A stretch of 64,000 nt of DNA from Macrostomum hystrix (taxonomy: Eukaryota; Animalia; Platyhelminthes): contig CATNEN010000039.1 of NCBI GenBank assembly GCA_950097015.1, positions 558,001 through 622,000 of the forward strand. Direction: 5' to 3'. The notes below the pieces were generated by a model. That model did no database searches and was not told the origin of the DNA. It saw only the letters and a list, made by a program, of their open reading frames with translations. Positions 1,446-31,205 of the stretch are shown piece by piece. The position numbers and the translations under genes are program-made. The number at the start of each line of letters is the position of its first letter. Within the stretch, counting starts at the first letter, position 1.

Positions 1446-2002
1446 TTGAAGAGGGTTAAGGTTACTTAGCTTGAGTCAATAACAGACAAATAGAGAGGGG
1501 AAGTCAGGTGTACTGGCGGCTGTTACGTCGATTCCAAATTGACTGATATCAAGACGACTGTTGCTTTAGGCCATCATCGCTAGTATGAAAAACTCGAATT
1601 CCCCTCTTTAGCAAGTAGTAGGGGTTATGTGCACTCTGCCGCAGGAATTTCCGTGGAAAAGCCACGGGGCTCAGTGTGTAAACATAGGCGCCCATGTAAA
1701 TGCATTGGTGGATTCTGCCGCAGGGAAAGCCGTGGCAGTTCCGGGGAGGCCCAGGTGGATTTGCTAAAAATAGAAACAAGGGAAGTGTACATTACTGACC
1801 CACTTTACAAAGCATGCCACAAGTATATTCACTGTTCGCTGTATATTCACGTATATTCACGTTCCGCACAATAATTTTAATGCATAGAGACCTGAAATTT
1901 CATATCGTGCGTTTCTATGGCTGGAGTAACCTTGGGGTTAGTGAGTGAACATAGGAGCCTATGTAAATGCATTGATGTGCTCTGCCGCAGGGAAAGCCGT
2001 GG
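1446..2002 (+). repeat. Left terminal inverted repeat of the Polinton
   Basis: ttgaagagggttaaggttacttagc...gggaaagccgtgg is the reverse complement of 18190-18745. About 5 differences were seen, all within roughly 1645-1680. Confidence 0.95.
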
Positions 2003-2115
2003 GAGTTCCGGGGTGGGGTGGGGAGGTCCGGGGCTGATTTGTAAAAAATGTGGGTTAGTGGGAACTCGCAGACCATGTTTTACTATAGCTGTATGTTTGC
2101 GGCAATGATTTAGTC

Positions 2116-2123
2116 TATATAAG
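2116..2123 (+). promoter_or_regulatory. Candidate TATA box for the PC4-like gene
   Basis: TATATAAG lies about 80 bp upstream of the ATG at 2199, just inside the left TIR. Confidence 0.4.
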
Positions 2124-2198
2124 TACCAAAAAATTGATTGATTCACGTGGAGCCGAAATTTTGTTTAAACGAGATAATTAATTCTGTTTAAGTTTGTC

Positions 2199-2966
2199 AT
2201 GGACATCTGCGAAGGATATAAGCTGCAAATACAGGAATATGAAGGAGTGAAATTCATTGCTATCAGAAAATTTTACCGACATGGCAGCACTGCGAGTTTG
2301 AAACCTGGAGTCCCCGGTTTCAATTTGAACATCCGGCAATGGCAGAAGCTCAAGGAACTGAAGAGATCGCTTGTCAAGGCTGCCTTGGACAACCAGCCGA
2401 AAGTTGTACAACTTGGCTTTGATAAATTCATCGAGGTGAAGGACAGCATCATCTGGCTAAAGCGACTGCCCGAGGACTGCTGCGAAGAGTTTCTTAAGCG
2501 GAACACAGTGCCGCTGACACCACCGCTGTGGCGGAAGCTGTGGCAGTACGCGGATTGGATTGACGGGCAGCTATCGGCTCAACGTGAGATGTCAGATATG
2601 TACGAGCTGGAGCCAGGATCTTCCTCGGACAGCATCAAAGGCGAAGACGGTGCTGGTGACAACGCAGACGAAACCAAACCTGCCCTGAAGATGGAAGATT
2701 CGGACGGTGCTGCTGCTGCTGATGAAGCTGCAATGTCATCCAATCTGCAAATTGATACGGAGTTCGCCACTTCAACGCCTTTGCCACTTTCAAAGGCTGT
2801 AGCTGGAGCCATTCCTCAGCAAGACACTGATCTACAGGAGGACCCAGTCTGGTACCAATTCCGAGCTCAAGCGGCTGCAGCTGAGAATGCTAGGAAGCGC
2901 AAGCAGCCGTCGTTTGCTCTGCGTAGATTGGATGCCATGAAGCTGCCCAAACTGCGCTTCGACTGA
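2199..2966 (+). CDS. PC4/Sub1-like ssDNA-binding or coactivator protein (one clear and one degenerate PC4 domain, acidic low-complexity tail)
   Basis: LQIQEYEGVKFIAIRKFY..SLKPGVPGFNLNIRQWQKLKE matches the PC4 pattern VSVxxFKGxxxIDIRxY..xKPGxKGISLxxxQWxxL. A second copy is suggested by QLGFDKFIEV..VPLTPPLWRKL..WID. The C-terminus has an NLS-like RKRK. Confidence 0.8.
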   Translation: MDICEGYKLQIQEYEGVKFIAIRKFYRHGSTASLKPGVPGFNLNIRQWQKLKELKRSLVKAALDNQPKVVQLGFDKFIEVKDSIIWLKRLPEDCCEEFLKRNTVPLTPPLWRKLWQYADWIDGQLSAQREMSDMYELEPGSSSDSIKGEDGAGDNADETKPALKMEDSDGAAAADEAAMSSNLQIDTEFATSTPLPLSKAVAGAIPQQDTDLQEDPVWYQFRAQAAAAENARKRKQPSFALRRLDAMKLPKLRFD

Positions 2967-3077
2967 ATGCGGACCCTCTGACACTAAAAGCAACATTTTT
3001 ATCCATACTTTTTTTCCAATTTTTTAAAAAAAATATGTGCTGCTTGTGCGTTCCAACATCTTAAGAAAAAATAAATT

Positions 3078-4175
3078 ATGAAAATTTTCGCCTCATTGTT
3101 TCTGAAAATGGAAAAAATTTACTTTAACCCGAATCAGCCAGCGAGTTATTGCAGTTCTTCAAAGCTTCAACATGAACTGAGAAAAAGAGATTATCACATC
3201 GGGGTTAAGGGGATTGAGCAATGGCTAAGTCAGCAGCCAGTGCATACTCTACATAAGCCGGCTAGAGTTCGATTTCAAAGGGCGCCAATAATAGTAAGAG
3301 CCATTGATGATCAGTGGGAGTTGGATCTGGTGGAAATGATTCCGTTTGCCAAATATAATCGCGGGCATAAATACATTCTTACATGTATAGATGTTTTATC
3401 TAAATTCGCTATGGCCAGAGCTCTGAGGTCTAAAAGCGCAGCAGAAGTGCAATCAGCGTTTGAGAGCATGCTGAAGAGCTCAAAGCGGCAGCCACGCACC
3501 GTCCGCACGGATCAGGGAAAGGAGTTTATTAACACAATATTTCGCCAGTTCTGCATAGACCGCGGGATTCTGGCGTTTCCAACAAACAGTGAGCACAAAG
3601 CTGCTGTAATAGAAAGATGGAATCGAACTTTAAAAGGCAAGATGTGGCGTTATTTTACTCACAACAGCACTCTACAATGGCTTGATGTGCTACCTAAACT
3701 GGTCAAGTCCTATAACAATACATTCCACAGAAGCATTAAGACTACACCAATGAATGTTTGCAAAGAAAATGAGACTGACATCTGGATGAATCTTTACGAT
3801 GGGAAAGCGATTGAGACAGTTAAGAATCTGAGAAAACCGAAGTTCAGTGAAAACCAGTCTGTACGAATTTCAAATGCTCCCAGACTCTTCAGAAAGGGAT
3901 ACATGGCTAACTGGAGTGAAGAAGTGTATACTGTAGTGTCTAGAGCTCCAAAGCATTATCCGTATATGTACCAGATTCGAGACATGAAGGGTGAAGATAT
4001 TCGAGGCCTCTTTTATGAGCATGAGCTGCAAGCTGTTCCGGACTCCCAGCGGCTGTATGTGATTGAAAAGATTCTAAAGACTGAGAAGCGGAAGGGAAAG
4101 ATTCGCTATCTCGTAAAGTGGGCCGACTACAACTCGACTGGCTGGGTGGATGAGAAGGACTTAAGAAAGGTATAG
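3078..4175 (+). CDS. Polinton rve (DDE) integrase with C-terminal chromodomain
   Basis: Catalytic motifs WELDLVEM, RTDQGKEF and IERWNRTLK, the Polinton-type FRKGYMANWSEE, and the chromodomain YVIEKIL..YLVKWADY..WV. The true start may be the ATG at 3108. Confidence 0.95.
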   Translation: MKIFASLFLKMEKIYFNPNQPASYCSSSKLQHELRKRDYHIGVKGIEQWLSQQPVHTLHKPARVRFQRAPIIVRAIDDQWELDLVEMIPFAKYNRGHKYILTCIDVLSKFAMARALRSKSAAEVQSAFESMLKSSKRQPRTVRTDQGKEFINTIFRQFCIDRGILAFPTNSEHKAAVIERWNRTLKGKMWRYFTHNSTLQWLDVLPKLVKSYNNTFHRSIKTTPMNVCKENETDIWMNLYDGKAIETVKNLRKPKFSENQSVRISNAPRLFRKGYMANWSEEVYTVVSRAPKHYPYMYQIRDMKGEDIRGLFYEHELQAVPDSQRLYVIEKILKTEKRKGKIRYLVKWADYNSTGWVDEKDLRKV

Positions 4176-4217
4176 ACATCTAAGTTATTCGATATTTTAA
4201 TATTTTGATTTTGAGGA

Positions 4218-5024
4218 ATGAGCAGCATCGTAATAAACAGTGAGCATGCAGAAGGTTCTTCTAGTGACTTTAATTTTCGCCTGTCTGCACCTATATACTT
4301 GGATCGAAATGTGGATTATGAGGCAGGTCTGGCTGAAATCCATATGCCTACTGCATGGCTCAATGTTGACGAGCCTTACTGCTTCACAGTCTCAGATGGA
4401 AGAGAGCATGAGGCCCTGGTTCTTCAACCCGGACGCTTTGACAGAGTGGAGGAGCTGGTGGAGCGGTTGAACGAGCTACTAGTCAACTCTGAGTCACTGT
4501 TCTTTGATGCCATGAGCGATAGAGAGTCTGAGATGGAGGCTGATGAATCGGGCCTGATGGCTCGCAGCAATAAAGATTTTGGGATAAAGTTTGAAATTCA
4601 GAATCAAAGAACAGTGATGCACAACAATACCGCACGAGCAGAGTTGTATTTTCCTCCAAGCAAAATCCTGCAGTGGTTGGGATTTGGAAACCAGTCAATC
4701 AAAATCCCACCTGGGCGCCACGTGTCAAGCTGTTGCATCGGCTGTCCGCCCACCAACCTGGTCAATGTGCACTGCAGCCTTGTTGAGTCAACAAGCTGCA
4801 ACTGGGACTCCCTGCTGCGAACTGTGAACATCAGTTCTAATGCTGAATGGGGCTGCTACTTCAGCAAAGTGTTTAAGAAAACATTGTTCTTCCCAATCCA
4901 GAAAGCAAATTTTCTACACAGCATTCGAATTCAACTGCGGGATACATTTGGTCACTCTCTGACTGCTCAGAGCTGCAGTCCTGTTTTGCTCACGATTCAG
5001 ATCCGGGAGAAACTTATTCGATGA
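4218..5024 (+). CDS. Minor capsid protein (penton, single jelly roll)
   Basis: N-terminus SDFNFRLSAPIYLD..YEAGLAEI and C-terminus LLRTV..FFPI..SIRIQLRDTFG..LTIQIR are typical of Polinton minor capsid proteins. It lies within the virion gene block. Confidence 0.8.
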   Translation: MSSIVINSEHAEGSSSDFNFRLSAPIYLDRNVDYEAGLAEIHMPTAWLNVDEPYCFTVSDGREHEALVLQPGRFDRVEELVERLNELLVNSESLFFDAMSDRESEMEADESGLMARSNKDFGIKFEIQNQRTVMHNNTARAELYFPPSKILQWLGFGNQSIKIPPGRHVSSCCIGCPPTNLVNVHCSLVESTSCNWDSLLRTVNISSNAEWGCYFSKVFKKTLFFPIQKANFLHSIRIQLRDTFGHSLTAQSCSPVLLTIQIREKLIR

Positions 5025-5407
5025 ACTATCAGCAGCTGATCCGGCAGTACTCTGGAACTCGAAATGGAAGCGATAAATCTGCGCCCTATGGGTGCGGAAG
5101 TTTTCCAGGGATCATGACATATCAACCTCCTCCAGCAACTTCACCAGCACATGCATCTCAGTTGGCCTCGGCTGGCAAAAGCGTTAGCAAAAGAAGACAG
5201 TTGAATGCTAAAGTTTCTAGGAAAAAGAGAATACAGAAGACACCTCGCCAAAATGGCAAGAAGGGGAAAAAATCAAGGAAACGGAAAAATGCAGGTAGAA
5301 AGAAACCTAAGAAAGGAGAGAGCAAAGCCAAGGGCAAAACGGTAAGCAAGAGGAAGCGAAAAGTCAGCAGGAAAACGGTGAAGCGCGTGCTGGACTCTTT
5401 GTCGTAG
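5021..5407 (+). CDS. Small highly basic protein, putative DNA-condensing core protein
   Basis: 39 of 128 residues are K or R, concentrated in the C-terminal part. It overlaps the upstream stop (ATGA) and ends 2 nt before the MCP start. Confidence 0.65.
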   Translation: MNYQQLIRQYSGTRNGSDKSAPYGCGSFPGIMTYQPPPATSPAHASQLASAGKSVSKRRQLNAKVSRKKRIQKTPRQNGKKGKKSRKRKNAGRKKPKKGESKAKGKTVSKRKRKVSRKTVKRVLDSLS

Positions 5408-5409
5408 AA

Positions 5410-6690
5410 ATGGCTTATGGATTCAACCCAAGGCTCGATTTGTTCAAGGCTCCTGCGCTGCAGACTGCCATTGACAAATCCTCCTATGTCGATATTCACC
5501 CCGTGAACTCAATTGCTGCAAATGCACCCATCGAATTCGATTGCCACCCATCAGCTGACGAATACACCGATCTATTGAATTCTTTTCTGTACATTCGCTG
5601 CCGCCTAGTCCGACTGGATGGGTGCTTGCTGAGGGAGAATGTTCTGAACGCTGAAGGAGAGCTGACAGAGCGCCGAGACAGTGATGTGCACCCTGAAAAC
5701 TTTGTCCTGTCTACGCTCTTCTCTGATGTCATTGTGAGCATTAACCAGCGAGTTGTGTCCGGGGGAGACCAACTCTATCCCTATCATGCCTATTTCAAAG
5801 CTCTCATGAGTTCCTCAGACGCCCAGCAGCTGAAGTTCTACCCCGCTGGATTCCTGCAACCTGACTCCGCTGCAGAGGCGCACATGGAGAGCCACAGGCA
5901 GTCCCGCTGGGTGGAGTATGCCGGACCGTTGCTCAGCGACATCTTCCAGTGCCCCATGTTGCTGCTGAACAACCTACACCTGCACATCAAGTTGGTGCCC
6001 AGCGACGCTGCATTTGCCATCAGAACCCCGGTCACAAACAACACAGCCTACCGCATGGAAATCTCCCACTGCATCCTGCATCTCTGCCGAGTCAAGGTGG
6101 CTTCTCACATCAGCCTAGCCCATGAGCAGGGACTGATCAACCAGAATGCGCTCTATCCTATGGAGCGAGCCGAAATGCAGAACTTTATTCTGCCCCAGGG
6201 AATCCAGTCGAAGAACATTGAAGGCTTTACCCACGGAAAACTCCCTAAGTTCATCATGCTGGCTTTCGTGAGCCACCGAGCCTTCAACGGGAATCATCAC
6301 ACCAGCCCCTTCGAGTTCCAGAGCTTCAACCTCAGCCAGCTAGCTCTAAAGAAAGGTGGGGAAGCCATGTGCCACGGTGCATTCACACCCGAAAACAACT
6401 CATTTGTGCGAGAGTACTTGCATTACCTGAAAAGCTGCCAGTCTGCCAGCCCCACCAACTCGGTCCCTTGGATCCCCTATCAGATCTTCTCCAACGACAA
6501 CACCGTGTTAGCGTTCGACCTCACACCCGAGGGAGCAGCCCTGTGGTACGGACAGAAAGAAGGAAACCTGCGGCTGGAGATTCGGTTCCGACAGGCGCTT
6601 GACGAGGCCGTGACTCTGATTGTCATGTGCCTGTATGACTCTCTGATTGAAGTCACCAAGCATAGGGAAATTTTGCTAGATTTTTCATAA
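5410..6690 (+). CDS. Major capsid protein (double jelly roll, Polinton PY)
   Basis: LDLF.AP..QT.I.KS.Y..I.P, PIEF, Y.DL.NSFLY, LFSDV.V.IN, YPY.AY, GKLPK, AFNG...SPF.F, AFDLTP and GNLRLEIRF are all Polinton MCP motifs. Confidence 0.93.
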   Translation: MAYGFNPRLDLFKAPALQTAIDKSSYVDIHPVNSIAANAPIEFDCHPSADEYTDLLNSFLYIRCRLVRLDGCLLRENVLNAEGELTERRDSDVHPENFVLSTLFSDVIVSINQRVVSGGDQLYPYHAYFKALMSSSDAQQLKFYPAGFLQPDSAAEAHMESHRQSRWVEYAGPLLSDIFQCPMLLLNNLHLHIKLVPSDAAFAIRTPVTNNTAYRMEISHCILHLCRVKVASHISLAHEQGLINQNALYPMERAEMQNFILPQGIQSKNIEGFTHGKLPKFIMLAFVSHRAFNGNHHTSPFEFQSFNLSQLALKKGGEAMCHGAFTPENNSFVREYLHYLKSCQSASPTNSVPWIPYQIFSNDNTVLAFDLTPEGAALWYGQKEGNLRLEIRFRQALDEAVTLIVMCLYDSLIEVTKHREILLDFS

Positions 6691-6695
6691 TAATT

Positions 6696-7211
6696 ATGAA
6701 CACTTTTCAGATGTTTAAACTTGCCAGAAGCTTTTTGCCCATTAGAAACGTTTTTATAGTGTCTCTAAATTTGAATAGTTCTAATAATGCTGAATTAGAA
6801 TTTCATTTGCGGAGTTACCTGAATGAGAAAACATATAAGAGCAAATTTATTTTCCTTTTGTTGCATCACAGCTCCTTGTCAGGTCACTGGGTGGTTTGCG
6901 ACGTCACTTACGGGAGTTCTGTGGAGCTTTTCAATTCCCTTGGCTGGGACTCGAAAACTTTAATGATTATTCATGATTTACTGCAAGTAGCCTTGGGTTC
7001 CCCGCTTCGTTTGAGCAGCAATGTGGATCGAATTCAAAGCTGTGACTCTGTCAAATGCGGTCTCTTCTGTCTTTATTTTACTTATCAGAAGTTTCAATTC
7101 AAACGGTCATTTAAGTGGGTTCTGCGACAACTGCATGCAAAGGAAAAGAGCCACCTGAATGACAGAATGCTTCGGCAGTTCGAAGCCAGCCTAAGAAAGA
7201 GAAAGTTATGA
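6696..7211 (+). CDS. Adenain-like cysteine protease (virion maturation)
   Basis: GHWVV (His), FNSLG (Asn where FDSxG is usual) and IQSCDSVKCGLFCLYF (oxyanion Gln and catalytic Cys). Confidence 0.88.
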   Translation: MNTFQMFKLARSFLPIRNVFIVSLNLNSSNNAELEFHLRSYLNEKTYKSKFIFLLLHHSSLSGHWVVCDVTYGSSVELFNSLGWDSKTLMIIHDLLQVALGSPLRLSSNVDRIQSCDSVKCGLFCLYFTYQKFQFKRSFKWVLRQLHAKEKSHLNDRMLRQFEASLRKRKL

Positions 7212-7897
7212 AAGTCAGCTCTACAAATTGGCTAAATCCGACTATGGAAACCAGTGCGAATAGAACCTGCTATGATGCCCGCCTGCGGCAGGGAAGCTGC
7301 ATGATTGTCAGCGGGCCAACCAATGCTGGCAAGACAACCTTCGTGAAGCAGCTAATTCAGTACAGGGATGTTATGTTTGATACGATGCCTGAGAGAGTCC
7401 TGTGGTACTATGGGGTTTCGCAGACAGTGCACTCTGAGCTGAGCAGCCTGGGAGTGCACATGCAGCAGGGATTCCCCAGCAACATTGAGGCGGCTCTAAG
7501 ACCCAATGACCTGATTGTTTTTGATGATTTGATTGAAGAGACTTCTAGCTCTGCTGCGATGCGAAATGTATTCACCGGAATCGCTCATCACTTACCCTGC
7601 TTTCTGGTAATGCTGACTCAGAATGTATTTTTTAAAGGAAAAGAGTTGCGAACGATGAGTCTGAATGCGATGTACTTTGTCATCATGAAGAACCCCAGAG
7701 ACCAGCTGCAGATTGCAGCACTGGGCAGGCAGTGCTTTGCAGAGAAGCCCGGCTTTCTGCTGTCTGTGTTTAAGCATGTGACCGCTCAAGGCAGGGGAGC
7801 TTACCTGCTTCTGGATTTCCACCCATCCACTCCCGATGAGCTGCGAGTGCGAGCGCGGATCCTGCCCAACCAGCGCCCCCACCTGGTTTATACCTAA
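7208..7897 (+). CDS. A32/FtsK-HerA-type genome packaging ATPase
   Basis: Walker A GPTNAGKTT, Walker B LIVFDDL, plus HH..C..TQN.F, RTMSLNA.Y..MKNPRD and YLLLD. The start could be the downstream ATG at 7244. Confidence 0.93.
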   Translation: MKVSSTNWLNPTMETSANRTCYDARLRQGSCMIVSGPTNAGKTTFVKQLIQYRDVMFDTMPERVLWYYGVSQTVHSELSSLGVHMQQGFPSNIEAALRPNDLIVFDDLIEETSSSAAMRNVFTGIAHHLPCFLVMLTQNVFFKGKELRTMSLNAMYFVIMKNPRDQLQIAALGRQCFAEKPGFLLSVFKHVTAQGRGAYLLLDFHPSTPDELRVRARILPNQRPHLVYT

Positions 7898-7936
7898 GAA
7901 TGGCAAATACGCTGTTTTCCATATCTATACTCAACA

Positions 7937-8260
7937 ATGGACACGCTTTGTTTTCATGAAAGCATCTTTGCAATTCTTGCATCAGCGAAATACACTGTCA
8001 GCTTCAAGCGCTTGCTAATCAAGCACGGTCCGAAAGAAGTGCGAAAATTCCTTGTTGAAGCCTGTTACAACCTATTGGAAAACAACCTGACTTTCTCTCT
8101 TATTGAAAAGGCTGAGCTGGCAAAGTCCAAGCAGATTATTCGAAAAATCCCAGCACAAAGAAAAGAAGCTGACTTGCTAAATCATAATTTCATAAAAATT
8201 CTCCCCACTCTGCTGAAGCTTGTGCATAGAAGAAAGAAGGAAAATGAACAAGTTCTCTGA
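7937..8260 (+). CDS. Small conserved Polinton protein, possibly a membrane-active virion protein
   Basis: L.EAC.NLL.NN....K..L.K.K..IRK resembles a small ORF that often follows the Polinton ATPase. The C-terminus has an amphipathic stretch FIKILPTLLKLV. Confidence 0.55.
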   Translation: MDTLCFHESIFAILASAKYTVSFKRLLIKHGPKEVRKFLVEACYNLLENNLTFSLIEKAELAKSKQIIRKIPAQRKEADLLNHNFIKILPTLLKLVHRRKKENEQVL

Positions 8261-8948
8261 GATGGTTCTGATTCCCAAGTCTGAGTATGACATGCTAATG
8301 ATTAATGTGAAACCCAATGAGTCTGCAGGAGACATTGCGGTAAAGCAGGCACAGATTAAATGTGATGATATATTGTATGCCGACGATTGCCCAGACAATG
8401 TAAAGACAGCCATGTACCAGAACGCTATGAAAAGTTTGTTGTCCAAGCGCAAGCAAGTTGGAAAGGAGAGTGTAGCAGGAGAGAGTCAAGCGGCAAAGAA
8501 ACAGAAAGCAGAGATGCTGCCGAGCAGCTGGGCTGAAAAGATTGCCCAGTCCGTGCCCCAGAAATTCAAAACCAGGGCTCGCAGTCTATGGGCCATCCTA
8601 TCTGATAATCCCTCCCTCATCCAGGTGTTCGAAAACGGCGAGGTGCAAATGGCTGGGCAGAGAATACCATCCTCAAACATCATGGATCTGTTTCATACTG
8701 CAGTGAGGGATTCAAAATGCGACAGCGAGCCGGTGGGCTGGAGTGAGTTTGTTTCATTGCTTCAAGACAGCAAGCTAAACATTCCAGCTTCAGCGATAGG
8801 GAAATCAGTGAGAAAGCTTATTTCCAAGCCAGCAGCCTCTCTAGAGGCGGAAGCTCTAGACTGTGCTCATCATACAGTCAAGGGACTTGGAAGCGAGAGA
8901 GCCTGGTTACAGCTGGGCAGAAAGAAACTATTTAAGAAAGGAAATTAA
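8244..8948 (+). CDS. Conserved Polinton protein of unknown function
   Basis: MVLIP N-terminus and GE...G..IP.SNI.DL..P.GW.EF...L...NIP...IG, a pattern I recognise from other Polintons. The first in-frame ATG is at 8244. Confidence 0.7.
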   Translation: MNKFSEMVLIPKSEYDMLMINVKPNESAGDIAVKQAQIKCDDILYADDCPDNVKTAMYQNAMKSLLSKRKQVGKESVAGESQAAKKQKAEMLPSSWAEKIAQSVPQKFKTRARSLWAILSDNPSLIQVFENGEVQMAGQRIPSSNIMDLFHTAVRDSKCDSEPVGWSEFVSLLQDSKLNIPASAIGKSVRKLISKPAASLEAEALDCAHHTVKGLGSERAWLQLGRKKLFKKGN

Positions 8949-8991
8949 ATCAGCTGTCTGTATTTTCTTTCGATATTCGATATCGCCGATA

Positions 8992-9858
8992 ATGAACTAT
9001 ATTGACTTCCAAGGCTTTCCATGTGAGAGATCAAGTAGTGGTTTCATTGTGAAGGAGCTGGCGGTTGTTGAAGTCCGAGCAGGCAGTTACAATATCACTC
9101 ATCATGTTTATTCTTCACCATATGCATGGGAAATGATCTCGCCTGAGATGCAAGTGCACTACAGAAAACTCTCAAGGAATCTGCACCGGCTCAAATGGAA
9201 CGATGGAACCCGATCTTACAAGAAATTAAAAACTGACATTCCCAAAATTTCTTACGGCCCAACTTGGACTAGCGGAGCGAGGAAGTCCGCTTTTCTAACT
9301 GAACTTCTTGGCCAACAGGCGTACAACCTTGAGGACCTGGGAGGACCTTTAGTCGAACAATCTGATACCGGCTGCGCATTAAAAAATACATTAATGTACT
9401 ACAGCTGGTTGAAGCCCAAGTTTTCCATAAGCTTTAGAAGCGAGGTGTGTCAGCACCATTCAAAAGGCATCAGCACTTTCAACGAAATCAGCAACTACAC
9501 TACCGCAAGCAGAAAAAATATCGGAAATGAGTACACCTTTGACAACTCTGAGAGTGACCAACCTGGTCGGTGGCGTGGATCTGAGACTGGCTGGAGGCAG
9601 GGGCGCCCAACTTCCTCTACGGGAACTGGCTCTCAGCATGGCTCATGTCATCTACCGACCCGTTTGGCCCCAAGTGCTCATCAAGAGGATGCGGGATCCG
9701 GGAGTCACTCTGCTGCTCTATCCCACCGGTCAACTGAGCATCTGTGGCGCCCGGAGCTACTCGGACTCAGTCAGGGCTGCCCGTCGCTTCGTGGCTATGC
9801 TGCATCGCAGAGTGCCTGCTCAACTGCTGCCTCATCAGTCCATTTGTGTACGAATTAA
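8992..9858 (+). CDS. DnaQ/DEDD-like (RNase H fold) nuclease-related Polinton protein; C-terminal extension overlaps the TBP-like ORF
   Basis: IDFQGF..FIVKELA..H..SSPY.W..LHRLKWNDG..NLEDLG..CALKN. The recognisable domain ends near 9420 and the frame stays open to 9858. Confidence 0.55.
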   Translation: MNYIDFQGFPCERSSSGFIVKELAVVEVRAGSYNITHHVYSSPYAWEMISPEMQVHYRKLSRNLHRLKWNDGTRSYKKLKTDIPKISYGPTWTSGARKSAFLTELLGQQAYNLEDLGGPLVEQSDTGCALKNTLMYYSWLKPKFSISFRSEVCQHHSKGISTFNEISNYTTASRKNIGNEYTFDNSESDQPGRWRGSETGWRQGRPTSSTGTGSQHGSCHLPTRLAPSAHQEDAGSGSHSAALSHRSTEHLWRPELLGLSQGCPSLRGYAASQSACSTAASSVHLCTN

Positions 9859-10093
9859 AACTATTAGTGCACATGGAAAGATTGACTTGCCCAACCCCCA
9901 ATGCTTGACAAGCCTCCGTGATGTGCTACCGAATGCTAGATATGAGCCAGAGTCCTTTTCTGCTTTGATTTGCAAACTGGACTTCTGTAAGTGCCTGCTT
10001 TTTCACAATGGCTCATTCGTTCTCAGTGGTGCGAAGACAATGAACATGCTGATTGCCGATTTTTCCAAGCTTCACCGTTTTCTGTGCCAGTAA
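9527..10093 (+). CDS. Divergent TATA-box binding protein (TBP core only) encoded by the Polinton
   Basis: Two TBP repeats. Repeat 1 is VTNLVG..L.LRELA...YRPVWP..IKRMRDPGVTLLLYPTGQLSICGARS..S.RAARRF. Repeat 2 is YEPESFSALICKL..CLLFHNGSFVLSGAKT. Compare TBP YNPKRF..RIREP.TTALIF.SGK.V.TGAKS..SRLAARKY and YEPELFPGLI..LLIF.SGK.VLTGAK. An AATAAA overlaps the stop. Confidence 0.9.
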   Translation: MSTPLTTLRVTNLVGGVDLRLAGGRGAQLPLRELALSMAHVIYRPVWPQVLIKRMRDPGVTLLLYPTGQLSICGARSYSDSVRAARRFVAMLHRRVPAQLLPHQSICVRIKTISAHGKIDLPNPQCLTSLRDVLPNARYEPESFSALICKLDFCKCLLFHNGSFVLSGAKTMNMLIADFSKLHRFLCQ

Positions 10094-10770
10094 TAAACTT
10101 ATGTTTCAACAGTTAAATAAGAAGACGACGACGGCTGAACAAAGTGTAACGTTTTTCATGCAATCTGCCACTTGTTTAAAATGTGTGCATTTTAACCAAT
10201 TTTATTTTGAAAATCTGACTTGGATTGGTCTTTCTTTATTTTCTAAACTGAAATAGCAATTGCTTGAGCATAGCAAATTTAAACAGATCACCACTAAAAG
10301 CATGGGAAAAGCACACCTACCACCACCACCCAGATTATGTACTCCTAAACAAATAAAACGAACACGAGCAAACAGAAATAAGAAAAGTGAATATTATTTA
10401 GATAATTAATGGATAATGGATAAAAACGAGTAGCAAATTAGCAAAAAAGAAAATAACAACTGTCGCTTCATTCATTCTGCAGTGCTAAAATAAGGTGCGT
10501 TGAAACAAAATAGAAAAGTCTGACTAATGTGATGCAACTGATTCCAACATGACTTTGGCAAGTTTGTATTGAAATAGAAAAAGGAAAACCTCTACCTGAA
10601 AATGTTACGCTCGTGATTTGCTTGGAGACTACAAAGATGTAACTAAATGAATAACTCTATTCATCAGCATCACCATCATTGTTCAGATGAGTTAAACCGC
10701 GGAAACAATTATGAGAATAAGTAAGAAGTCAAGAAATTACAAATTCAAAGTTACTCAGATGTGTAAAGCA

Positions 10771-13700
10771 TCACTCTAAGCAATCAGCTGCCCTTTTCGG
10801 TCTACCCCTGATCGTTAGCTGAAAGTGGCCGAACGGAAGACTTGTGTTCGAGCCAGTCCACGCTCGCTTGTCCTCCCAGATACTGAGAGCGAGCTTGCGT
10901 TGCTCCATGGTGAAAACGCGATGTTTCTCACTTCCAATTCGACGAACAGTGAGCGACAGCTTTGAAGCGTCCCTGAAAATCTTTACGTAGTCATCGTGGG
11001 AGACTTCATTCTTCAGCACGCTTCGTTGGATACCTTTTGCTTTTGCTTTGCTAGCCGTCGAGCTTTCGGCGAGGAAAGAATAGAGCTTGGGCCTCAGCAG
11101 CACCCACTCAATCTGCCGCACTCCACCAGCTTCATCTTTAATGCAGCCTAGCCTGGCCTTCAGTTGATTCGAGAAGAGTGGGTGATTAGATAAAAAATTG
11201 GATGTGTCCAAGAGGCTTTCGGCATGCAGGATTGGCAGCACTTCTCTCTGCAAGTTAAGATTGTCTAAGCTCAAAAACAGCGAGTCTGTATCGCCACCAC
11301 AAACACGAACTCTCGCTCCATCACGGAATTCTAGCATGGGTTTTATTCTGTCGTAGTAAAGTCGATACATGATGATCTTGGAGCGATCTAGAACACACTG
11401 CCCCATGAAAATTGGGCGATCAAGAGTTACTTCACGCTTTTGAAGCTCGAAGATGCTGAGTGACGGTGTAATGATGGTGAATGATGTGACATTTGGTTGC
11501 GAAGAAACAGTCTTCACCTTTTTCTTGTTATTGCACACTCTGATGTCTCGCCGCTTGCGTACGTTCTCCATTGTTTTGCCAAACAGGGAATTATTTTTCA
11601 GCTTGTAGAAATCCTTCTCGAAATCATTTTTCGCCATAGAGCGCTTCTCACTATTCATCTTAATGTAGTCCGCGAAGACAGGTTCTTGCCTGAATTCGAT
11701 CATCCTTTGGAGCTTGTGCAACTTCATCCCGTGCGATAGATAGAATCGGAGGGCTGAAGAGTGCAGTACATAGGAAAATTTGTTGTGGCATGTGAGCATT
11801 AACTTTTGTACTCCACGGTAGTGCGCAGCGGTAGGATCTACAGTGGTGTTCGCGTCGGGCTGCTGATGACGATGATAATTGTCGTGCTGAAGCAGTGTCC
11901 ATAATTCTCGCATGTACTGTGGAAATTCATCGAAATCCGGACACCTTTTCTCTGGGGCGAATGGAAGATCCTCCGTTGCCGAGTGGATTTCGGCAGGGTA
12001 GAGCAAATCCGCTTTGACAAGGTAGCCGATTGGAGCGTCATCGTCCAGGGCGAGAAAGCGGCGCTCAGACCATGAGCACAGCTCCTCTTGACTAAGCCAG
12101 CGAAAGCCACCAACAGGTAGGGGCATTGTGAGCGCATGACCGTAAAGGTTATTAGCATCAACAGCCAGTAAACTCCTACCTGCTGTTTCATCATCATCAC
12201 TGCTTTCGCTCTGGGCATGATGTACATTGACAAAAGACATTCCGCCCCGAATTCCTTTCTCAAACATTTTGTACATCTCGAGATCGGTTAGCAGTTCAAT
12301 CTTGACTTGAGAAGACTTTAGCGCTGAAGCAAATGACAGGCCTGGGGTTGACACAAAATGCACCGGATCTAGCTTGTCTTCCTGCAAACTCAGCCTTCGA
12401 AACCCTTCAAAGATATCTGCAAGTTGCCTGATGTCCAGCTCCAAGTAGCATTGCATGTAATCGCGCAATGTTGTGGATTCGAACTCAGTCCATGCCTTCT
12501 GCGCATGCCGATACTCCGCCTCGGTACAGTGGCTGTTGGTGAGTCGATTAAAAAAACTGTCTACTTTTGGTAGTTGGCGATCATCGAGCACATTCAAATT
12601 TGAGAGATAATCATAAGGGAAAACTCCCTTACTGAGCAGTACATCCCTTGAAAGATTTGGATACTTTGATCGCATCGCATTAGTGATGGGACAGTTGTCC
12701 TCCGGCAAGTTCTTGATAAGCTGAGAAAGACTGCTGTGTAGGAATTGCAGTGAATCGATGAACTGCATCGTGAAGAACAGGGGCTTCTTCTTACCATCTT
12801 TTTCGTACTCATCAATTAGGAATTCCACTCTCATTGAGAGATAAGATTCAGCAGTTTGTGGTATAACACTTACTTTCCAACCTGGCATGTCGCCTAGGGC
12901 GCTCGAAAAAATCAGGTGCAGGTCATAACCACGAAGATTATGCATGACGATGGGCAAGAAGCGCCGCCGCAGTTTAGCAAGCTTGTTGCATGAAGCACAG
13001 GCAGCTCCTCTAAAATCTCCGCTCAAATGGTCATGATCCCAATGTTTGTCAGATGATGAGGTAAGAGCTGCACTGCAATAGTGGCACTGAACGGATTCAG
13101 CAAAGTTGCGCCTATCTTCTTCCTTGCTCCTGTCTGCTTTTTGGTGGCTGAACTCCGTATTCCACCCATAGATTCCACGAGCAAGTTGTTCGAGTGAGGC
13201 CAAAAACTGCTTCACGACAGAATTCGGATTGGGACCGCTGCAGAGGAAAACATCCTCACTCGGCCTCCGAATGTCGCTGCTCATACCCTCTCTTGGAATA
13301 ACAATGTAGCCAGCAGCTACAGGCAGATGCTCAGTTAACTTGGTGATACCAACTGCTCTGTCAGGCTCCATTAGTTCACACGGGGTGTTCAGAGCTTCAA
13401 AATCTGCGTAGACAACAAATGGGGGACTGATAGTCTTTTCCCAAGCCATGAATTGCATTGTGTTGCTATTTGCATCAGGCATGCGCTCCATGATGCTGGG
13501 TTTCAGCTGAGGATTGCAGCTGTCTCGATGCTGCTCTAACTCCTCCTGGGATCGAAACGGAGAAATGCACTTCTCACACCATTTGCGATTCCTCAGACCT
13601 TTTTTGCTGTTCAGGAGCCGGTCCAGGTTCGAAACTGCACACCAGTGTCCAGTCCCACAATTCTCAGCATCATTATCATCATCATTAGCATCATCGGAGC

Positions 13701-15554
13701 ATGAGTTGCGAAGCAAGAGTAGAGGAATAACCTTGCGAGAGGCACAAAGCCCAGGAAGTGGCTGGCGAATGACATAGGCCTCATCATGCTCCCAGGTAAA
13801 AACTGTGAAACAGATTTCGGGATTCTTTTCTTCTATAACTTCTAAATCGGAAATTGCGATTGGTAAACTGATGCCGCTCAGATCGATTTCACCCAGCCAT
13901 CTGCTGTAAGTTGTTAGTCGATGACAGGACTTCATCACACCAGGATCACTGCTGTGCAGGTAAGCAAGACAGGCAAATAGAAAGCAATCATTTCCATTGC
14001 TCGGTGGGTTCATGATGGCCTTCTTAACTACTAGCCGATTGGGCACAGTAAAATTAGCACATCGTCCTCGATAGTAGCGAATGCGATCAGTGAGGGCAGT
14101 GCTCAGATCAAAATAGTTGATTTGCTCAACTATCCAACCACTCCCATTTGCATTGTAGGTGTCAATCTTGCGTTCCAGCTCAGAAAACTGCTGCAGCCAC
14201 CACAATTCAAAGTCTCTAAGATCAGTAAGAAGCTCGAGACTGCATGCGAACCACTTATCCTCCGCATTAACTACCATTGCTTCTTTGATTCTCACCATTC
14301 TAATGTTGAACTTAAGCTGCGCTCGAACAGAATTGTTCTCGGATGAATCGAATCTCATCTCAACAGCCTGTAGCACTGCGAACTTAGTAGATGTTAAAAA
14401 GTGAAATGGATCGAGACCTCTTGAGGTTGGAGTGAAGCGTCTGACCTGCAGTATGTCATCATGCGCACTGGCCTGAACAGCCGAGCTGAATTGAATGCCT
14501 GCGTGAATTGATCATTTTTTTTTAATATTCGCATTTCCATGGACAGTTAAAAATAAGTTATTTCCTCTAATTCTATCTCCTCATAGTGTCAATCAACGAA
14601 ATCGGTGAATCAAGAATCAGTGAATCAGTGAATCGGTAATTCGGATTAAGTGAATCGGTGAATCAGGAATCGGTGAATCAGGAATCGGTGAATCAGGAAT
14701 CGGCGAATCAGGAATCGGTGAATCAGGAATCGGTGAATCAGGAATCGGTGAATCAGGAATAGGTGAATCAGGAATCGGTGAATCAGGAATCGGTGAATCA
14801 GGAATCGGTGAATCAAGAATCGGTGAACCGGGAATCAGTGAACCGGGAATCAGTGAATTGGGAATCAGTGAACTGGGAATCAGTGAATCAGGAATCGGTG
14901 AATCAGGAATCGGTGAATCAGGAATAGGTGAATCAGGAATCGGTGAATCAGGAATCGGTGAATCAGGAATCGGTGAATCAAGAATCGGTGAACCGGGAAT
15001 CAGTGAACCGGGAATCAGTGAATTGGGAATCAGTGAACTGGGAATCAGTGAATCAGGAATCGGTGAATCAGGAATAGGTGAATCAGGAATCGGTGAATCA
15101 GGAATCGGTGAATCAGGAATCGGTGAATCAAGAATCGGTGAATCAAGAATCGGTGAATCAGGAATCGGTGAATCAGGAATCGGTGAATCAGGAATCGGTG
15201 AATCAGGAATCGGTGAATCAGGAATCGGTGAATCAGGAATCGGTGAATCAGGAATCGGTGAATCAGGAATCGGTGAATCAGGAATCGGTGAATCAAGAAT
15301 CGGTGAACCGGGAATCAGTGAACCGGGAATCAGTGAACTGGGAATCAGTGAATCAGCGGATGGGTTTGTTATGACTACTTAGCGTGTACTTTTAGAGGGA
15401 TAAGTCTACTTCGCTGGCTATGCTGAACTCATTTGAATAAAAATTGCATGAACTCACCGGTTGGCTCGAGCTCGAAAGTGAAATTGGTGGACTCATGCGA
15501 CAGATCACTTGCTGCTGCTGCTGATGTGGTGGCTGGTGAAGTGTCTCTCGACAT
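10771..15554 (-). CDS. Protein-primed family B DNA polymerase (pPolB); predicted exons 15554-15458 and 14498-10771, about 1274 aa
   Basis: Exonuclease motifs YADFEA and HNLRGYD, KGVFPYDY, and polymerase motifs DANNLYG, KLKNNSLFGKTMEN and GDTDS. The N-terminal region has GSGW, an OTU-like DCF..GHW and a Zn finger. An endonuclease VII/HNH-like insert reads DHDH..G.FRGAAC..CN. The frame is open up to 14511, and a phase-1 GTGAGT...CAG intron joins a 97-nt ATG exon in frame. Confidence 0.93.
14598..15356. repeat. 15-bp minisatellite (gaatcggtgaatcag) inside the predicted pPolB intron
   Basis: About 50 tandem units. It explains the spurious GESGI and NQESV repeat ORFs. Confidence 0.95.
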
Positions 15555-16348
15555 TATCTCGGTTCCTTTTATTACACAGTTGGAAGCATTTTAGATCAGA
15601 TGGGGGAATTTGCTGAAACGCATATTTTTGTGATGATTTTATTTGGAAAAGCTAATATCAGTAACATAATTTGTGAATATACTAAACATTCATATTATCG
15701 AAAGTTGCTAATCGGGTCTGGTCGTTACATACTAAAATTTCGGGTCCAAAACTTTTATAGTGTGCATACATTTGTTCTCTCTAAATCGATAAATCAAAAT
15801 TAAATAACTCAAAGCCGCGAACTTTTCCAAAATGCAGCGCTTCCGTATTCTTTCAGCATTATTAACTGATACAAAATAGGTATCAGTTTTTACTTTTATT
15901 AAAAATATGCGATGTGAAAACATTGGAAACAGAAGTTAATTAGAGACGGAGATTATAAAAAATAACGCAGAGCCAACCAGAATCAATCCCAATCCTCATC
16001 CTTGCATTAAACACATGACACCCTAGCACAGGTTGATCAATCAGCACTACATAGATGCATAAACTTTTACTTTATAGACATTAGATCGCTAGATGTTAAA
16101 AATTATGAAATTTGAAATTCGCGTTTGAAAATAATTTATGGGTCTTGACTTAATTTACAAAAAATATTTCCAGATACACAATTATTAACTCCTACAATCA
16201 CCATGAGATGCCATCAATCGGCGCTCATAAAGCAATACGTTAATAAAAAATAAGATCCTCCAATCCTCCTAGGTAAAAAAGCGCCGTTGGTATCAGTAAA
16301 GTCACTCTATTTTCTTCCACTTATTTCAAACTTGGTACTATTATAAAA

Positions 16349-17302
16349 TTAAGAGTTGCTCAGGCGAATTCGGAAAGTCCCCCCCAAGCCAATCCAATAT
16401 TCACCGTTAACACTGCTAGGCAGAACCAGCTGGATGCAGATGGGTGCTGGCTGCTGCAGTGCTTCATTAGCGGTCGCGGCCGCAGGCTGAACCTCAGTCG
16501 GTGGTGGTGGTGTTGGTGGTGGTGGTGGAGGCACAGGACCCGACTCAAGGTCGCGGATCACGTCAGACAGACTGACTTCTGCTAGCATCCTGGCACGCTC
16601 CATATTTTTCCCGGAAACAGGGATTGCATGTTGCTGCTGCAGCTGCTGCTGTTCGATTACTTCGTGCTCATCAAGGTTCTCGAAAAATGCGGTGTCCAGC
16701 TCAGGCAGCTCGAAGTTAGGAGTGTCAGCGTCAAGCAGGGGAGCTCCGACATCGCCGTCAAGTAGAGCAGCAGCAGCAGCAGAAGCAGCAACAGCAGCAT
16801 CAGCATCAGCAGCTGCAGCGGCTGCTGAAAGAACGCCAGGGGTCGAAGAATCTGCTGTTGCAGTAGCGGTGCCGGGCAGCGAGGGAGTGCCGATGTCTAT
16901 AGCAGCAGCATCAGCAGCAGCAGCAGTAGGCTGGGCGTTGAGCCGAGCGACAGTGCTGGTGACTCGACCGCATAAATTAGCTATTACTTGACTCAATGAG
17001 CTCTCCGGCTCTGCCGCCTTTTTGCCTTCCTCTTGATGCGCCACTTCCAGAGCAGTAATGCGCGCCCGCTCGCGATCCTCAGCAGAGCTCCAGTTAACAG
17101 TAGCATGATTTTTATGCCGCTTTATTTGGCCTCTAACAGTAAAGAGCTCAACCGACTGACATTGGTGACATAGTAGCCATCGGGTGACATTGCAGCCTTG
17201 TTTCACAACATGATGCTTAAGTCCACCGAGCATACTAGTGTTGCAGGTGGCACACACTTCATGAACGTAGGATGGGCACCGGGGACGACTCATAGCTTTC
17301 AT
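16349..17302 (-). CDS. Polinton accessory protein with a Cys/His-rich (putative Zn-binding) N-terminus and Ala-, acidic-, Gln- and Pro-rich regions
   Basis: 317-aa ATG-initiated ORF with CATC..HH..C..CHQC..H..H, FELPELDTAFFENLDEHE, a polyQ run and a polyP run. TATAAA lies about 65 bp upstream. Confidence 0.6.
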   Translation of the reverse strand: MKAMSRPRCPSYVHEVCATCNTSMLGGLKHHVVKQGCNVTRWLLCHQCQSVELFTVRGQIKRHKNHATVNWSSAEDRERARITALEVAHQEEGKKAAEPESSLSQVIANLCGRVTSTVARLNAQPTAAAADAAAIDIGTPSLPGTATATADSSTPGVLSAAAAAADADAAVAASAAAAALLDGDVGAPLLDADTPNFELPELDTAFFENLDEHEVIEQQQLQQQHAIPVSGKNMERARMLAEVSLSDVIRDLESGPVPPPPPPTPPPPTEVQPAAATANEALQQPAPICIQLVLPSSVNGEYWIGLGGTFRIRLSNS

Positions 17303-17365
17303 GGACTTAACATTTATTCAAAGTGACTCTTGTGAAAATTTCAAATTTTCAAGTCCAGTTTAATC

Positions 17366-17373
17366 TCTTTATA
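17366..17373 (-). promoter_or_regulatory. Candidate TATA box for ORF 17302-16349
   Basis: TATAAAGA on the minus strand about 65 bp upstream of the ATG. Confidence 0.4.
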
Positions 17374-18189
17374 TCTATTCCCATCCCCTTATCTTGCAGA
17401 ACACATAGCGGCTATGTTTACAGCTTTGTTTTTTTTCACATTTTGTTTGGAATGTGTACACTGTTATGCCATACAGAGGGTCAGAAAATTATTAATATTA
17501 CCAGGTAGCCAGTCACACATCGCACAAACTGCTTTGTTCATGCAGTGAATTGGCCCAGCAACCGATTGTTACTGAGTTTTGTGGGCGAAATTAGCTGATA
17601 AGAAACTGATAACTGTTCCCGCGGTGTTTTGGTACAAACAAAAACAACCTCGCGAATATTGATCCGCATGGAATGGGACTATTGCAAATCAAGTGCGCCG
17701 GCACTTTTACCACAAAACCACATATTTATCTTACTGTGGCATTCAAGATATTGTTCTCTATAGCTCTCTACGCTCGTATATGGTGTTTCGATAATCTATT
17801 AAATGTTTGATTTTAATTTGTCAGGCCTTTGCAGACAGAAACCCAAAAGCCGACACTGATTAACTTCTAGTTAACAATGAACTTATCAATTGTTTCCTGC
17901 ACAGCTCCTTAATGAAAGATTTCAGTGGTAAATTAATTAGATTTTTACTTTTCTCTATGCACGCATTCCTCATCAGAAAGCAGTTTTCCGAAAGCATAGG
18001 TCCATGTATTCCCATTGCCATAGTTTAAATACCCAGACATCGGAAGCAGATTCACTACCTTCTAAGTCCAACCCGCCTATATTATTGCTGCAGTGTTGTG
18101 TCTTGTAAAACTGGGACGGGCTAGAATTTGAACAAATTGTTTGCTTTTTTATAAAAAGCCATATTTTCTTTCTGACCTCCATGGGATTT

Positions 18190-18745
18190 CCACGGCTTTC
18201 CCTGCGGCAGAGCACATCAATGCATTTACATAGGCTCCTATGTTCACTCACTAACCCCAAGGTTACTCCAGCCATAGAAACGCACGATATGAAATTTCAG
18301 GTCTCTATGCATTAAAATTATTGTGCGGAACGTGAATATACGTGAATATACAGCGAACAGTGAATATACTTGTGGCATGCTTTGTAAAGTGGGTCAGTAA
18401 TGTACACTTCCCTTGTTTCTATTTTTAGCAAATCCACCTGGGCCTCCCCGGAACTGCCACGGCTTTCCCTGCGGCAGAATCCACCAATGCATTTACATGG
18501 GCGCCTATGTTTACTCACTGGGCCCGTGGCTTTTCCGCGGAAAATCCTGCGGCAGAGTGCACATAACCCCTACTACTTGCTAAAGAGGGGAATTCGAGTT
18601 TTTCATACTAGCGATGATGGCCTAAAGCAACAGTCGTCTTGATATCAGTCAATTTGGAATCGACGTAACAGCCGCCAGTACACCTGACTTCCCCTCTCTA
18701 TTTGTCTGTTATTGACTCAAGCTAAGTAACCTTAACCCTCTTCAA
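18190..18745 (-). repeat. Right terminal inverted repeat of the Polinton
   Basis: Reverse complement of 1446-2002, ending ...gctaagtaaccttaaccctcttcaa. Confidence 0.95.
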
Positions 18746-30700: not shown

Positions 30701-31205
30701 CAGCCAACCGCCGCACTGGTTTAACAACCGACCGCTAGGCCCACTCAAAACACATCTCCTTTGTACGCGTACATTTTGTTCATTAACGCAGCTAGATACG
30801 AAGTACTCAAATTAAAGCAGTTTTTTTGTAAATTACATGTTCTTACTGTCGCCCTCCCGCCCGCAGCCGAAGCTTCACCTGCCGCAGCTAAAGTACAACA
30901 AGTTTGACTCTCGTCGGCCCAGCAACGCAGCCGAGGACTCGCCGATCCTGGCTGGCGGCCACGCAGGTGCAGTTGAAAAGGACGTACGTGAGGTGAAGCG
31001 CTGCCTGCGCATGTACCTGAGTCGGCTCAAGGAGAAGGAGCGGAAGAACGTGCTGGCGATGGAGTGGCGCACCTTTGCGCTCATTCTCGACCGCGTCTTC
31101 TTTTCCGCCTACGTCATGGCCATCCTTATCGCCGTCATCAGCTTGATTCCCAGGGCGCATCCGAAGCTGGAATACAGCAACGAGGACCAGGAGTTTTGTC
31201 GCTGA
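27730..31205 (+). CDS. Cys-loop ligand-gated ion channel, non-alpha nAChR-family subunit, predicted anion-selective; exons 27730-27860, 28585-29752, 30867-31205
   Basis: Signal peptide, RPV, IWTPDI, Cys loop CPVEILHFPFDTQLC, FGSWTY, M1-M3, and EW..A.ILDR..M4. GT-AG junctions join in frame. There is no vicinal CC in loop C, and a PA motif precedes M2. Confidence 0.93.
27890..28556. repeat. 33-bp minisatellite filling nAChR intron 1
   Basis: Unit gctcagagatagaattggctgataagggactgg, about 20 diverged copies. Confidence 0.93.
29881..29958. repeat. 22-bp tandem repeat (~3.5 copies) in nAChR intron 2
   Basis: accggtatttcagcctacataa repeated. Confidence 0.9.

Follow-up and report, generated by a model that had tools for sequence, protein, structure and literature searches.

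In the stretch of the Macrostomum hystrix genome analysed here (contig CATNEN010000039.1 of assembly GCA_950097015.1, positions 558,001 to 622,000 of the forward strand; 64,000 nucleotides, hereafter the window), one complete-looking, intact Polinton spans positions 1614–18577 (16,964 bp) and encodes a TATA-binding protein (TBP) of its own. On balance, we favour the reading that this protein is part of a private late-gene switch, in which the element TBP would bind the box YYTAAGAAWR and recruit host TFIIB and RNA polymerase II (Pol II) by means of two glutamates for the transcription of seven inner-cassette genes, as far as can be judged from the sequence. The initial annotation had read three open reading frames (ORFs) as a TBP, a PC4-fold protein and a Zn-binding activator-like protein, and all three ORFs were found where it had placed them, at 9527–10093 (+ strand, 188 amino acids [aa]), 2199–2966 (+ strand, 255 aa) and 16349–17302 (− strand, 317 aa), respectively. 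The gene at the centre of the proposed switch is as follows.

9527–10093, + strand: compact two-lobed TBP with an altered DNA face and with E140/E142 kept; AATAAA at the stop codon

The TBP fold was recovered. The predicted protein matched Pfam family PF00352 in two stretches (E 9e-22; 77 bits vs a cut-off of 22.9), and 35 Protein Data Bank (PDB) sequences matched it. A first fold computed from seven sequences was poor (pLDDT 60.7); the model from a 119-row alignment reached a pLDDT of 95.2 and a pTM of 0.87, and its two lobes form a saddle with TM scores of 0.82–0.83 to yeast, human and archaeal TBPs. The latter model leans to the known fold because the alignment includes cellular TBPs. The best viral structural match to this model in BFVD reached a TM score of only 0.72; it is A0A5P9U4S6, an unnamed protein of 189 aa and thus of the size of the element TBP, which may be the TBP that Starrett et al. 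label among MELD-virus genes. Residue 49 of the element TBP (window position 9672) is Gln, compared with Arg in all six aligned relatives and in nearly all contigs of four sequencing runs, and either stems from an error in sequencing or is a private variant.

The yeast DNA-contact residues were taken from Table 1 of PMC12529657, in its accessible part, and the numbering was checked via sequence P0046 against the structure 1ngm. In the element TBP, 8/15 listed contacts are changed (F99>P48, with W47 adjoining, F116>Y65, V122>S71, T124>C73, N159>T112, V161>S114, P191>S145 and T215>S167), and N69, V71, L114, F190, L205, F207 and V213 (yeast numbering) are kept. The canonical contact set is therefore incomplete, with F190 and F207 kept and F99 and F116 replaced among the four intercalating phenylalanines. 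N159 and V161 are replaced by Thr, Ser or Ala in 98–100% of 87 compact TBPs, in 5/5 flatworm-type TBPs and in 4/4 TBPs of a second Polinton lineage (loci L004–L007, described below), and remain Asn and Val in 98–100% of cellular TBPs (42 from eukaryotes, 18 from archaea), the groups being taken from a FastTree tree. The TFIIB glutamates E186 and E188 (E140 and E142 of the element TBP) are kept in 5/5 flatworm-type TBPs and in 90% and 98%, respectively, of the 87 compact TBPs. In the N-lobe basic patch, the residues corresponding to R105, R107, R137, K138 (>R) and K145 (>R) are basic, and K97 (>V), K133 (>V) and R141 (>A) are lost; we take the residues of this patch to be those assigned to TFIIA, Mot1 and NC2. 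Two C-lobe glutamates are given as TFIIB contacts in the accessible text of PMC7221094. By this residue pattern, the protein has the look of a TBP of altered specificity that could still meet TFIIB.

The motif TAAGAA lies within 70, 110 and 150 nt upstream of five, six and seven, respectively, of the 13 starts in the element. These counts were matched by 1, 1 and 0 of 5000 dinucleotide shuffles and by 10, 7 and 8 of 20,000 random windows, respectively, and were unaffected by the choice of ATG for the integrase or the packaging ATPase. The longer pattern YYTAAGAAWR occurs three times in the other 47 kb and seven times in the element, on the + strand and preceding a gene start in every case.

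3060–3069, + strand: YYTAAGAAWR, 46 nt before the integrase ATG at 3108 (16 nt before the ATG at 3078)
4160–4169, + strand: YYTAAGAAWR, 56 nt ahead of the putative gene for the minor capsid protein
4872–4881, + strand: YYTAAGAAWR, 147 nt before a basic ORF; the weakest case
5306–5315, + strand: YYTAAGAAWR, 102 nt ahead of the putative gene for the major capsid protein
7190–7199, + strand: YYTAAGAAWR, 52 nt before the ATPase ATG at 7244 (16 nt before the ATG at 7208)
7893–7902, + strand: YYTAAGAAWR, overlapping the ATPase stop codon, 42 nt before ORF 7937
8931–8940, + strand: YYTAAGAAWR, 59 nt before ORF 8992

The second ATGs, at 3108 and 7244, are the likelier starts of the integrase and ATPase genes because the box lies only 16 nt from the first ATGs. 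Ordinary TATA boxes within 200 nt upstream were found only for the genes of the PC4-fold protein and the Cys/His protein, which are the two genes proximal to the terminal inverted repeats (TIRs).

2116–2123, + strand: canonical TATA box TATATAAG, 83 nt before the ATG of the PC4-fold gene
17366–17373, − strand: ordinary TATA box TATAAAGA, 71 nt before the ATG of the Cys/His ORF

Under the proposed switch, host TBP would read the two ordinary TATA boxes first, and the element TBP would then bind the TAAGAA boxes. Its retained glutamates would recruit host TFIIB and Pol II, by which the integrase, capsid and packaging genes would be switched on. The PC4-fold protein would aid replication as a single-stranded DNA (ssDNA)-binding protein, and the Cys/His protein would perhaps be an early regulator. 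We infer the binding and timing steps from the fold, residues, retention and boxes observed. The suggestion of the initial annotation that host Pol II may be redirected by the element to promoters that belong to it gains support from the candidate promoter box and the kept TFIIB glutamates.

The TBP gene is kept in sister elements and is not a one-off capture. The closest named proteins were gene models of Macrostomum lignano, and 5/276 candidates were close relatives of the element TBP (intact, 66–75% identical; four of full length, with 66–73% in the alignment), with P0015 as a more distant relative (49% identical). The mis-spliced M. lignano models P0008, P0012 and P0014 fuse the TBP with bits of adjoining element genes; therefore, the gene order is the same in sister elements. 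The frame of the preceding ORF 8992 is open across the TBP start, giving an overlap of 332 nt, and this run-on is repeated in P0012. Within the overlap, the TBP frame was identical at 39–41 of 42 positions to five M. lignano models and the read-through frame at 34 of 48 positions to one, which points to selection acting on the TBP frame, although the copies compared differ between the frames. The 40 differences listed between the window and contigs of other runs, 30 of them genic (17 synonymous and 11 non-synonymous outside the TBP gene, and two TBP sites, both non-synonymous in the TBP frame), were too few and too mixed for use.

A second, distant Polinton lineage also carries a TBP. In a metagenome scan, 133 pattern matches led to seven loci, 4/7 of which (L004–L007) have a TBP about 26% identical to the element TBP beside Polinton genes, with an ATPase in 4/4, an integrase in 3/4, and a putative capsid protein and protease in L004. 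The order of ATPase, small ORF, ORF with a VLIP motif and TBP is found in both lineages, and among the flanking matches only that of the VLIP ORF was significant. The box differs in this lineage: ATAGGA was found in 9/20 upstream windows of L004 and L005, a post hoc count, and recurred in 5/11 windows of L006 and L007 (1/2000 shuffles), with TAAGAA in 0/11 there and ATAGGA before 0/13 genes of the window. The TBP frames of these loci (L004 3332–4192, L005 1923–2753, L006 2004–2951 and L007 2237–3088) lack a Met close to where the domain begins, and they overlap the final part of the VLIP ORF; they may use frameshifting, splicing or a long N-terminal overlap. Between TBP and integrase lies a small ORF with a hydrophobic C-terminal segment pair (L004 4244–4732 and counterparts in L005–L007), with an ATAGGA box 55–69 nt upstream. 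L001 and L003 were rejected as Polinton TBP loci, both carrying archaeal-type TBPs. L002 has, at 154–612, a compact TBP with an internal stop adjoining a hydrophobic ORF of the type seen in L004–L007, which marks it as a decayed copy; no core-gene match was found in this locus. Scans of IMG/VR yielded no relatives of either TBP group or of PC4, and the ATPase gave only two weak P-loop loci there.

A profile of the L-locus TBP group matched 213 proteins at E ≤ 1e-20; among the best 120 of these, the top matches were TBPs of 170 aa, and two were named proteins from the clam Mercenaria. Four TBP clusters that were looked up have 21–84 members, many on separate megabase contigs and some truncated, as expected for a mobile gene. 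Trees were built on chosen subsets (FastTree, 269/275 sequences; 40 and 30 rows picked by hand). The flatworm-type, L-locus and compact TBPs grouped apart from cellular TBPs with support of 99/94 (LG+G4, 40 rows) and of 92/79 (LG+C20, 30 rows), or 97/97 with another two compact rows. A constraint placing the flatworm-type TBPs with animal TBP was weakly rejected in the approximately unbiased (AU) test (p 0.037), and a recent capture of an animal TBP is weakly rejected with it. The description of the transcription factors as captured basal factors is thus doubtful for the TBP, which groups with other compact element TBPs and not with animal TBP. Six further compact TBPs of 180–200 aa from metagenomes (P0028, P0033, P0062, P0068, P0076 and P0128) branch beside the element TBPs and possibly belong to other viruses. 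Only tentatively, and as an idea somewhat short of probable, do we suggest that distant animal Polinton lineages share an old element-borne TBP, which would read a family-specific TATA variant (TAAGAA; ATAGGA in L004–L007) and plug into host TFIIB and Pol II.

The two other proteins of the initial annotation are described as follows.

2199–2966, + strand: PC4-fold protein; PC4 core at residues 8–54, then a region to about residue 128, an acidic tail and a basic C-terminus
16349–17302, − strand: Cys/His ORF; two CxxC motifs (17, 45) and Ala-rich, acidic, Gln-rich and Pro-rich tracts

The PC4 assignment of ORF 2199 stands for an ssDNA-binding core with kept aromatics, as Y14 and Y26 align by sequence to F77 and W89 of human PC4; the match is limited to residues 8–54 (PF02229, E 3e-6, 27.1 bits vs a cut-off of 25, residues 8–53 only; PDB PC4 sequence, E 5e-4). 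Three relatives are 74–80% identical over residues 1–130, and residues 129–215 are acidic (21 Asp/Glu vs 5 Lys/Arg). A tandem PC4 repeat at residues 67–128 was unsupported (hhalign E 0.12). Elements with a protein-primed DNA polymerase B (pPolB) displace a single strand during replication, and the role of an ssDNA-binding protein is therefore the plainer reading, although the protein may act as a coactivator; judged by its sequence, the PC4-fold protein most likely serves protein-primed strand-displacement replication in this way. According to the accessible text of PMC9600219, eukaryotic PC4 folds take part in transcription and that of phage T5 in DNA replication. No PC4-like match was found in the TBP-bearing loci L004–L007, whose contigs are partial. 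For the Cys/His ORF, the two CxxC motifs and the tracts are present as described, and the term activator-like rests on composition. Database searches gave no Pfam family, structure match or homologue for it: a PHROG endolysin match was rejected as falling in low-complexity sequence, and the best Atlas match for its domain (0.80) was at chance level. LxCxE is absent from all 13 ORFs of the element, the Cys/His ORF included. A sister copy of the latter is visible via P0008 (55–88% in antisense frames). The Cys/His protein may be an early regulator, going by composition and position.

Alternatives to the private switch differ in what they assign to the TBP and the box. The element TBP could be a decoy that soaks up host TFIIB by its kept glutamates, or could bind element DNA for replication or packaging, with TAAGAA read by a host factor or arising as a by-product of Lys/Arg codons. 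A kept TFIIB face beside 8/15 changed DNA contacts, F99 and F116 included, and the position of 5/7 boxes in coding sequence would suit this explanation. We nevertheless regard it as unlikely, since the DNA-face changes are identical across distant element TBPs and invariant in the family instead of scattered, parallel those of ORF24 of KSHV (the herpesvirus associated with Kaposi's sarcoma), a proven promoter binder, and accompany a box that differs between two lineages with differing TBPs. Distinctly unlikely is the three-part kit of the initial annotation, in which TBP, PC4 as coactivator and the Cys/His ORF as activator would form a small pre-initiation module on element promoters. Its strength lies in the presence of all three genes in one element, in the matching order of TBP, pPolB and Cys/His regions in P0008 of M. 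lignano, and in the ordinary TATA boxes, behind which PC4 and the Cys/His protein would be made first; furthermore, the ssDNA domain of PC4 also contains sequences required for coactivation (PMC9600219, accessible text), and CxnC proteins occur in herpesvirus late complexes, to go by a reference title in PMC7498053. Set against this, only the ssDNA core of PC4 is matched, in a fold that is also replicative, as in phage T5; its gene has an ordinary TATA box and lies 6.5 kb from that of TBP; in the searches made, neither a family, a structure match, a homologue nor LxCxE was found for the Cys/His ORF; and PC4 was not matched in the partial contigs of L004–L007. The claim of a single kit is unsupported.

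We consider it very unlikely that the transcription system of a co-infecting helper virus reads the box, as for virophages and some polinton-like viruses (PLVs), with the TBP as an adaptor to it or a leftover. TAAG is the baculovirus late motif, and large DNA viruses commonly encode TBP-like proteins, as the BFVD matches indicate. Virophages and PLVs depend on a helper, as far as the accessible sources state, but no helper is known for this element, its TBP model resembles cellular TBPs (TM 0.83) more closely than it does any viral TBP in BFVD (best TM 0.72), and the glutamates for cellular TFIIB are kept, unlike in most viral TBPs covered by the accessible part of PMC7221094.

Several points weigh against the private switch and the shared origin of its TBP. 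TAAGAA was fixed before counting, but the window sizes and the longer pattern were chosen after the sites had been seen. The spacing from box to start is 42–59 nt in five cases, but 102 and 147 nt in two. Five of the seven boxes lie within the preceding coding sequence at Lys/Arg codons, in two codon phases, one lies at a stop codon and one in a spacer, and the dinucleotide shuffle does not control for a Lys/Arg codon origin. No box was found before the genes of TBP, pPolB and protease or before ORF 8244, and the first expression of TBP is unaccounted for by the box model; TBP may share the transcript of ORF 8992. The ATAGGA check is not independent, L006 and L007 being kin of L004 (TBP 76%), 3/11 of their windows are off the ATG by a few bases, and ATAGGA also occurs where no gene starts. 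The loss of one intercalating Phe together with F116>Y could mean weak DNA binding, going by the accessible text of PMC7221094. Flatworm-type TBPs forced with archaeal TBP were not rejected (p 0.056), support for a single origin of element TBPs drops to 92/79 under the mixture model, and long branches, which may attract, limit all TBP tree results.

Among known systems, the viral TBP (vTBP)/TATT system of beta/gamma-herpesviruses (ORF24 of KSHV, BcRF1 of Epstein–Barr virus) is alike in that a DNA element in the nucleus encodes a TBP-fold protein, with a TATA-like box of non-standard sequence ahead of structural genes and ordinary TATA boxes for early genes; at yeast V122, T124 and V161, polar residues are found in ORF24 as well (features of the system from the accessible parts of PMC7498053 and PMC12529657). 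ORF24 differs in its 752 aa, its Pol II-binding N-terminal domain, its need for five more viral factors and its lack of the TFIIB acids, whereas the element protein consists of no more than the core (188 aa), retains E186/E188 and has lost F99 and N159, both of which are kept in ORF24. The element likely works like the herpesvirus vTBP-TATT system without being a member, as it lacks the Pol II-binding domain and a recognisable partner set. The TBP-like proteins of Nucleocytoviricota are likewise viral, two-lobed and thought to serve viral promoters; unlike the element TBP with its host-type glutamates, they are mostly paired with a viral TFIIB and have a diverged TFIIB signature (PMC7221094, accessible text).

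The position that no TBP occurs in this class of elements was too strong, as Starrett et al. (2021, PMC8502044; preprint 10.1101/697771) label TBP among the genes of MELD viruses whose PolB is adintovirus-like; these are likewise Polinton-sized elements with a TBP-like gene. In the accessible text of that paper, this TBP is a label in the legend of Fig. 5, in a section on non-animal datasets, without analysis of residues, promoters or spread, and it was not found in one supplement file. The adintovirus Oncoid of the same paper resembles the Cys/His ORF in its position upstream of PolB and in two CxxC motifs, as far as the accessible text goes, and differs in that LxCxE is missing from the Cys/His ORF. 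Compared with PC4/Sub1 proteins, including the phage T5 homologue, the element protein has the core with aromatics at F77/W89, with W89Y as in MoSub1 (PMC9600219, accessible text), and differs in that the core is N-terminal and followed by about 70 unassigned residues and the acidic tail. The literature searched, which did not extend to papers behind a subscription, reports in Repbase, figures or supplements on bioRxiv, yielded no paper on the function of a Polinton TBP, on a Polinton late box or on a Polinton PC4. In their accessible parts, PMC7221094 does not mention polintons, PMC11161782 does not mention TBP or PC4, and the nematode Polinton preprint does not mention promoters.

The ends of the element are defined by the terminus AGTAGTAG, which occurs only at 1614 and 18577. 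AG termini are typical of Polintons. Contigs from three other runs (X2, X5 and X6) depart from the window sequence at 1614 with different flanks, and 1614 is a mobile end because these contigs diverge there. The initial annotation had described a TIR-bounded element of about 17 kb; the inverted arms are indeed present, spanning 1446–2016 and 18176–18745, and the true ends lie inside them.

1614–2016, + strand: left TIR, starting with AGTAGTAG and containing the block CTCTGCCGCAGG three times; 98.7% identical to the right TIR
18176–18577, − strand: right TIR; TIR length about 400 bp
1446–1613, no strand: extra 168-bp inverted flank on the left, 100% complementary to 18578–18745
18578–18745, no strand: extra inverted flank on the right, a perfect inverted copy of the left 168 bp

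Size and TIR length fall inside the Polinton ranges of 13–25 kb and 100–1500 bp given, with target-site duplications of 5–8 bp, in the accessible text of the nematode Polinton preprint. No target-site duplication was visible at either terminus, where the 168-bp inverted copy hides or replaces the original junction; this outer flank may be an assembly artefact, a conversion between the two ends or the result of insertion into a palindrome centre.

The 13 ORFs of the element were scanned against Pfam, and the remaining genes and a repeat array are as follows.

3078–4175, + strand: integrase, retroviral-type with chromodomain (Pfam)
4218–5024, + strand: putative minor capsid protein, from position only; no family match
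5021–5407, + strand: small Lys/Arg-rich ORF, putative core protein
5410–6690, + strand: putative major capsid protein, sharing 24% identity with the L004 gene in the corresponding place (E 1e-29); no Pfam match
6696–7211, + strand: adenain-like cysteine protease (Pfam Peptidase_C5, E 9e-4, under the cut-off)
7208–7897, + strand: packaging ATPase (P-loop, under the Pfam cut-off), 28–30% identical to the ATPases of L004–L007
7937–8260, + strand: small helical ORF after the ATPase, 29% identical over 73 columns to the L004–L007 counterpart, not significant
8244–8948, + strand: ORF with an N-terminal VLIP motif common to the gene preceding TBP in L004–L007 (hhalign E 3e-4)
8992–9858, + strand: ORF 8992, 74% identical over residues 1–143 to the M. 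lignano model P0012
10771–14358, − strand: protein-primed DNA polymerase B with an Endonuclease VII insert (Pfam)
14600–15356, no strand: 15-bp tandem array of about 50 copies upstream of pPolB

The full virion and replication gene set described earlier is upheld for the integrase (rve and chromodomain) and pPolB with its Endonuclease_7 insert, and is probable for the C5 protease and the P-loop ATPase, both below the cut-off; the capsid calls are weaker, resting on synteny and 24% identity and not on fold. The protease and ATPase are homologous to L004 genes that pass the cut-offs, the L004 ATPase passing Pox_A32. TFIIB and RNA polymerase families were not found among the element ORFs in the Pfam scan. 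ORF 8992 had no family match in database scans; it may be exonuclease-like, and its identity as RnlA was rejected because the matches were weak (E 0.8–1.8). The 15-bp array contains TGAATCA 37 times, which we take to be AP-1-like. It can be read through in either direction, giving (IGESG)n and (PIPDS)n, but has no ATG; the array is possibly an enhancer.

Outside the element, pieces of host gene sequence encoding an F5/8 type C (discoidin) domain lie at 18972–24163 (− strand); roughly 230 bp separate them from the outer inverted flank. Dense host minisatellites with units of 19, 24, 26, 33, 41 and 50 bp and up to 86 copies are found at 27889–47516 and 59111–59655, and a nested inverted repeat at 53299–54342.

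A dedicated TBP and a box before the structural genes bear on how Polintons time their capsid genes and on particle formation without a helper virus, and the question is reduced to one small protein and a 10-bp site. As host TFIIB would be kept, unlike in herpesvirus vTBP, the protein would be a minimal change-of-specificity TBP. Compact TBP-like genes of invertebrate genomes, such as 'TBP-like 1' in Mercenaria, may belong to elements instead of being paralogues of the host. If the wider reading, a TBP shared by distant Polinton lineages, is true, no smaller viral switch for late transcription would be known, as it would consist of one 188-aa protein; the families would offer a natural set of orthogonal TBP–promoter pairs, that is, pairs of TBP and DNA code; and these 'transposons' would run a timed, helper-independent virus programme.

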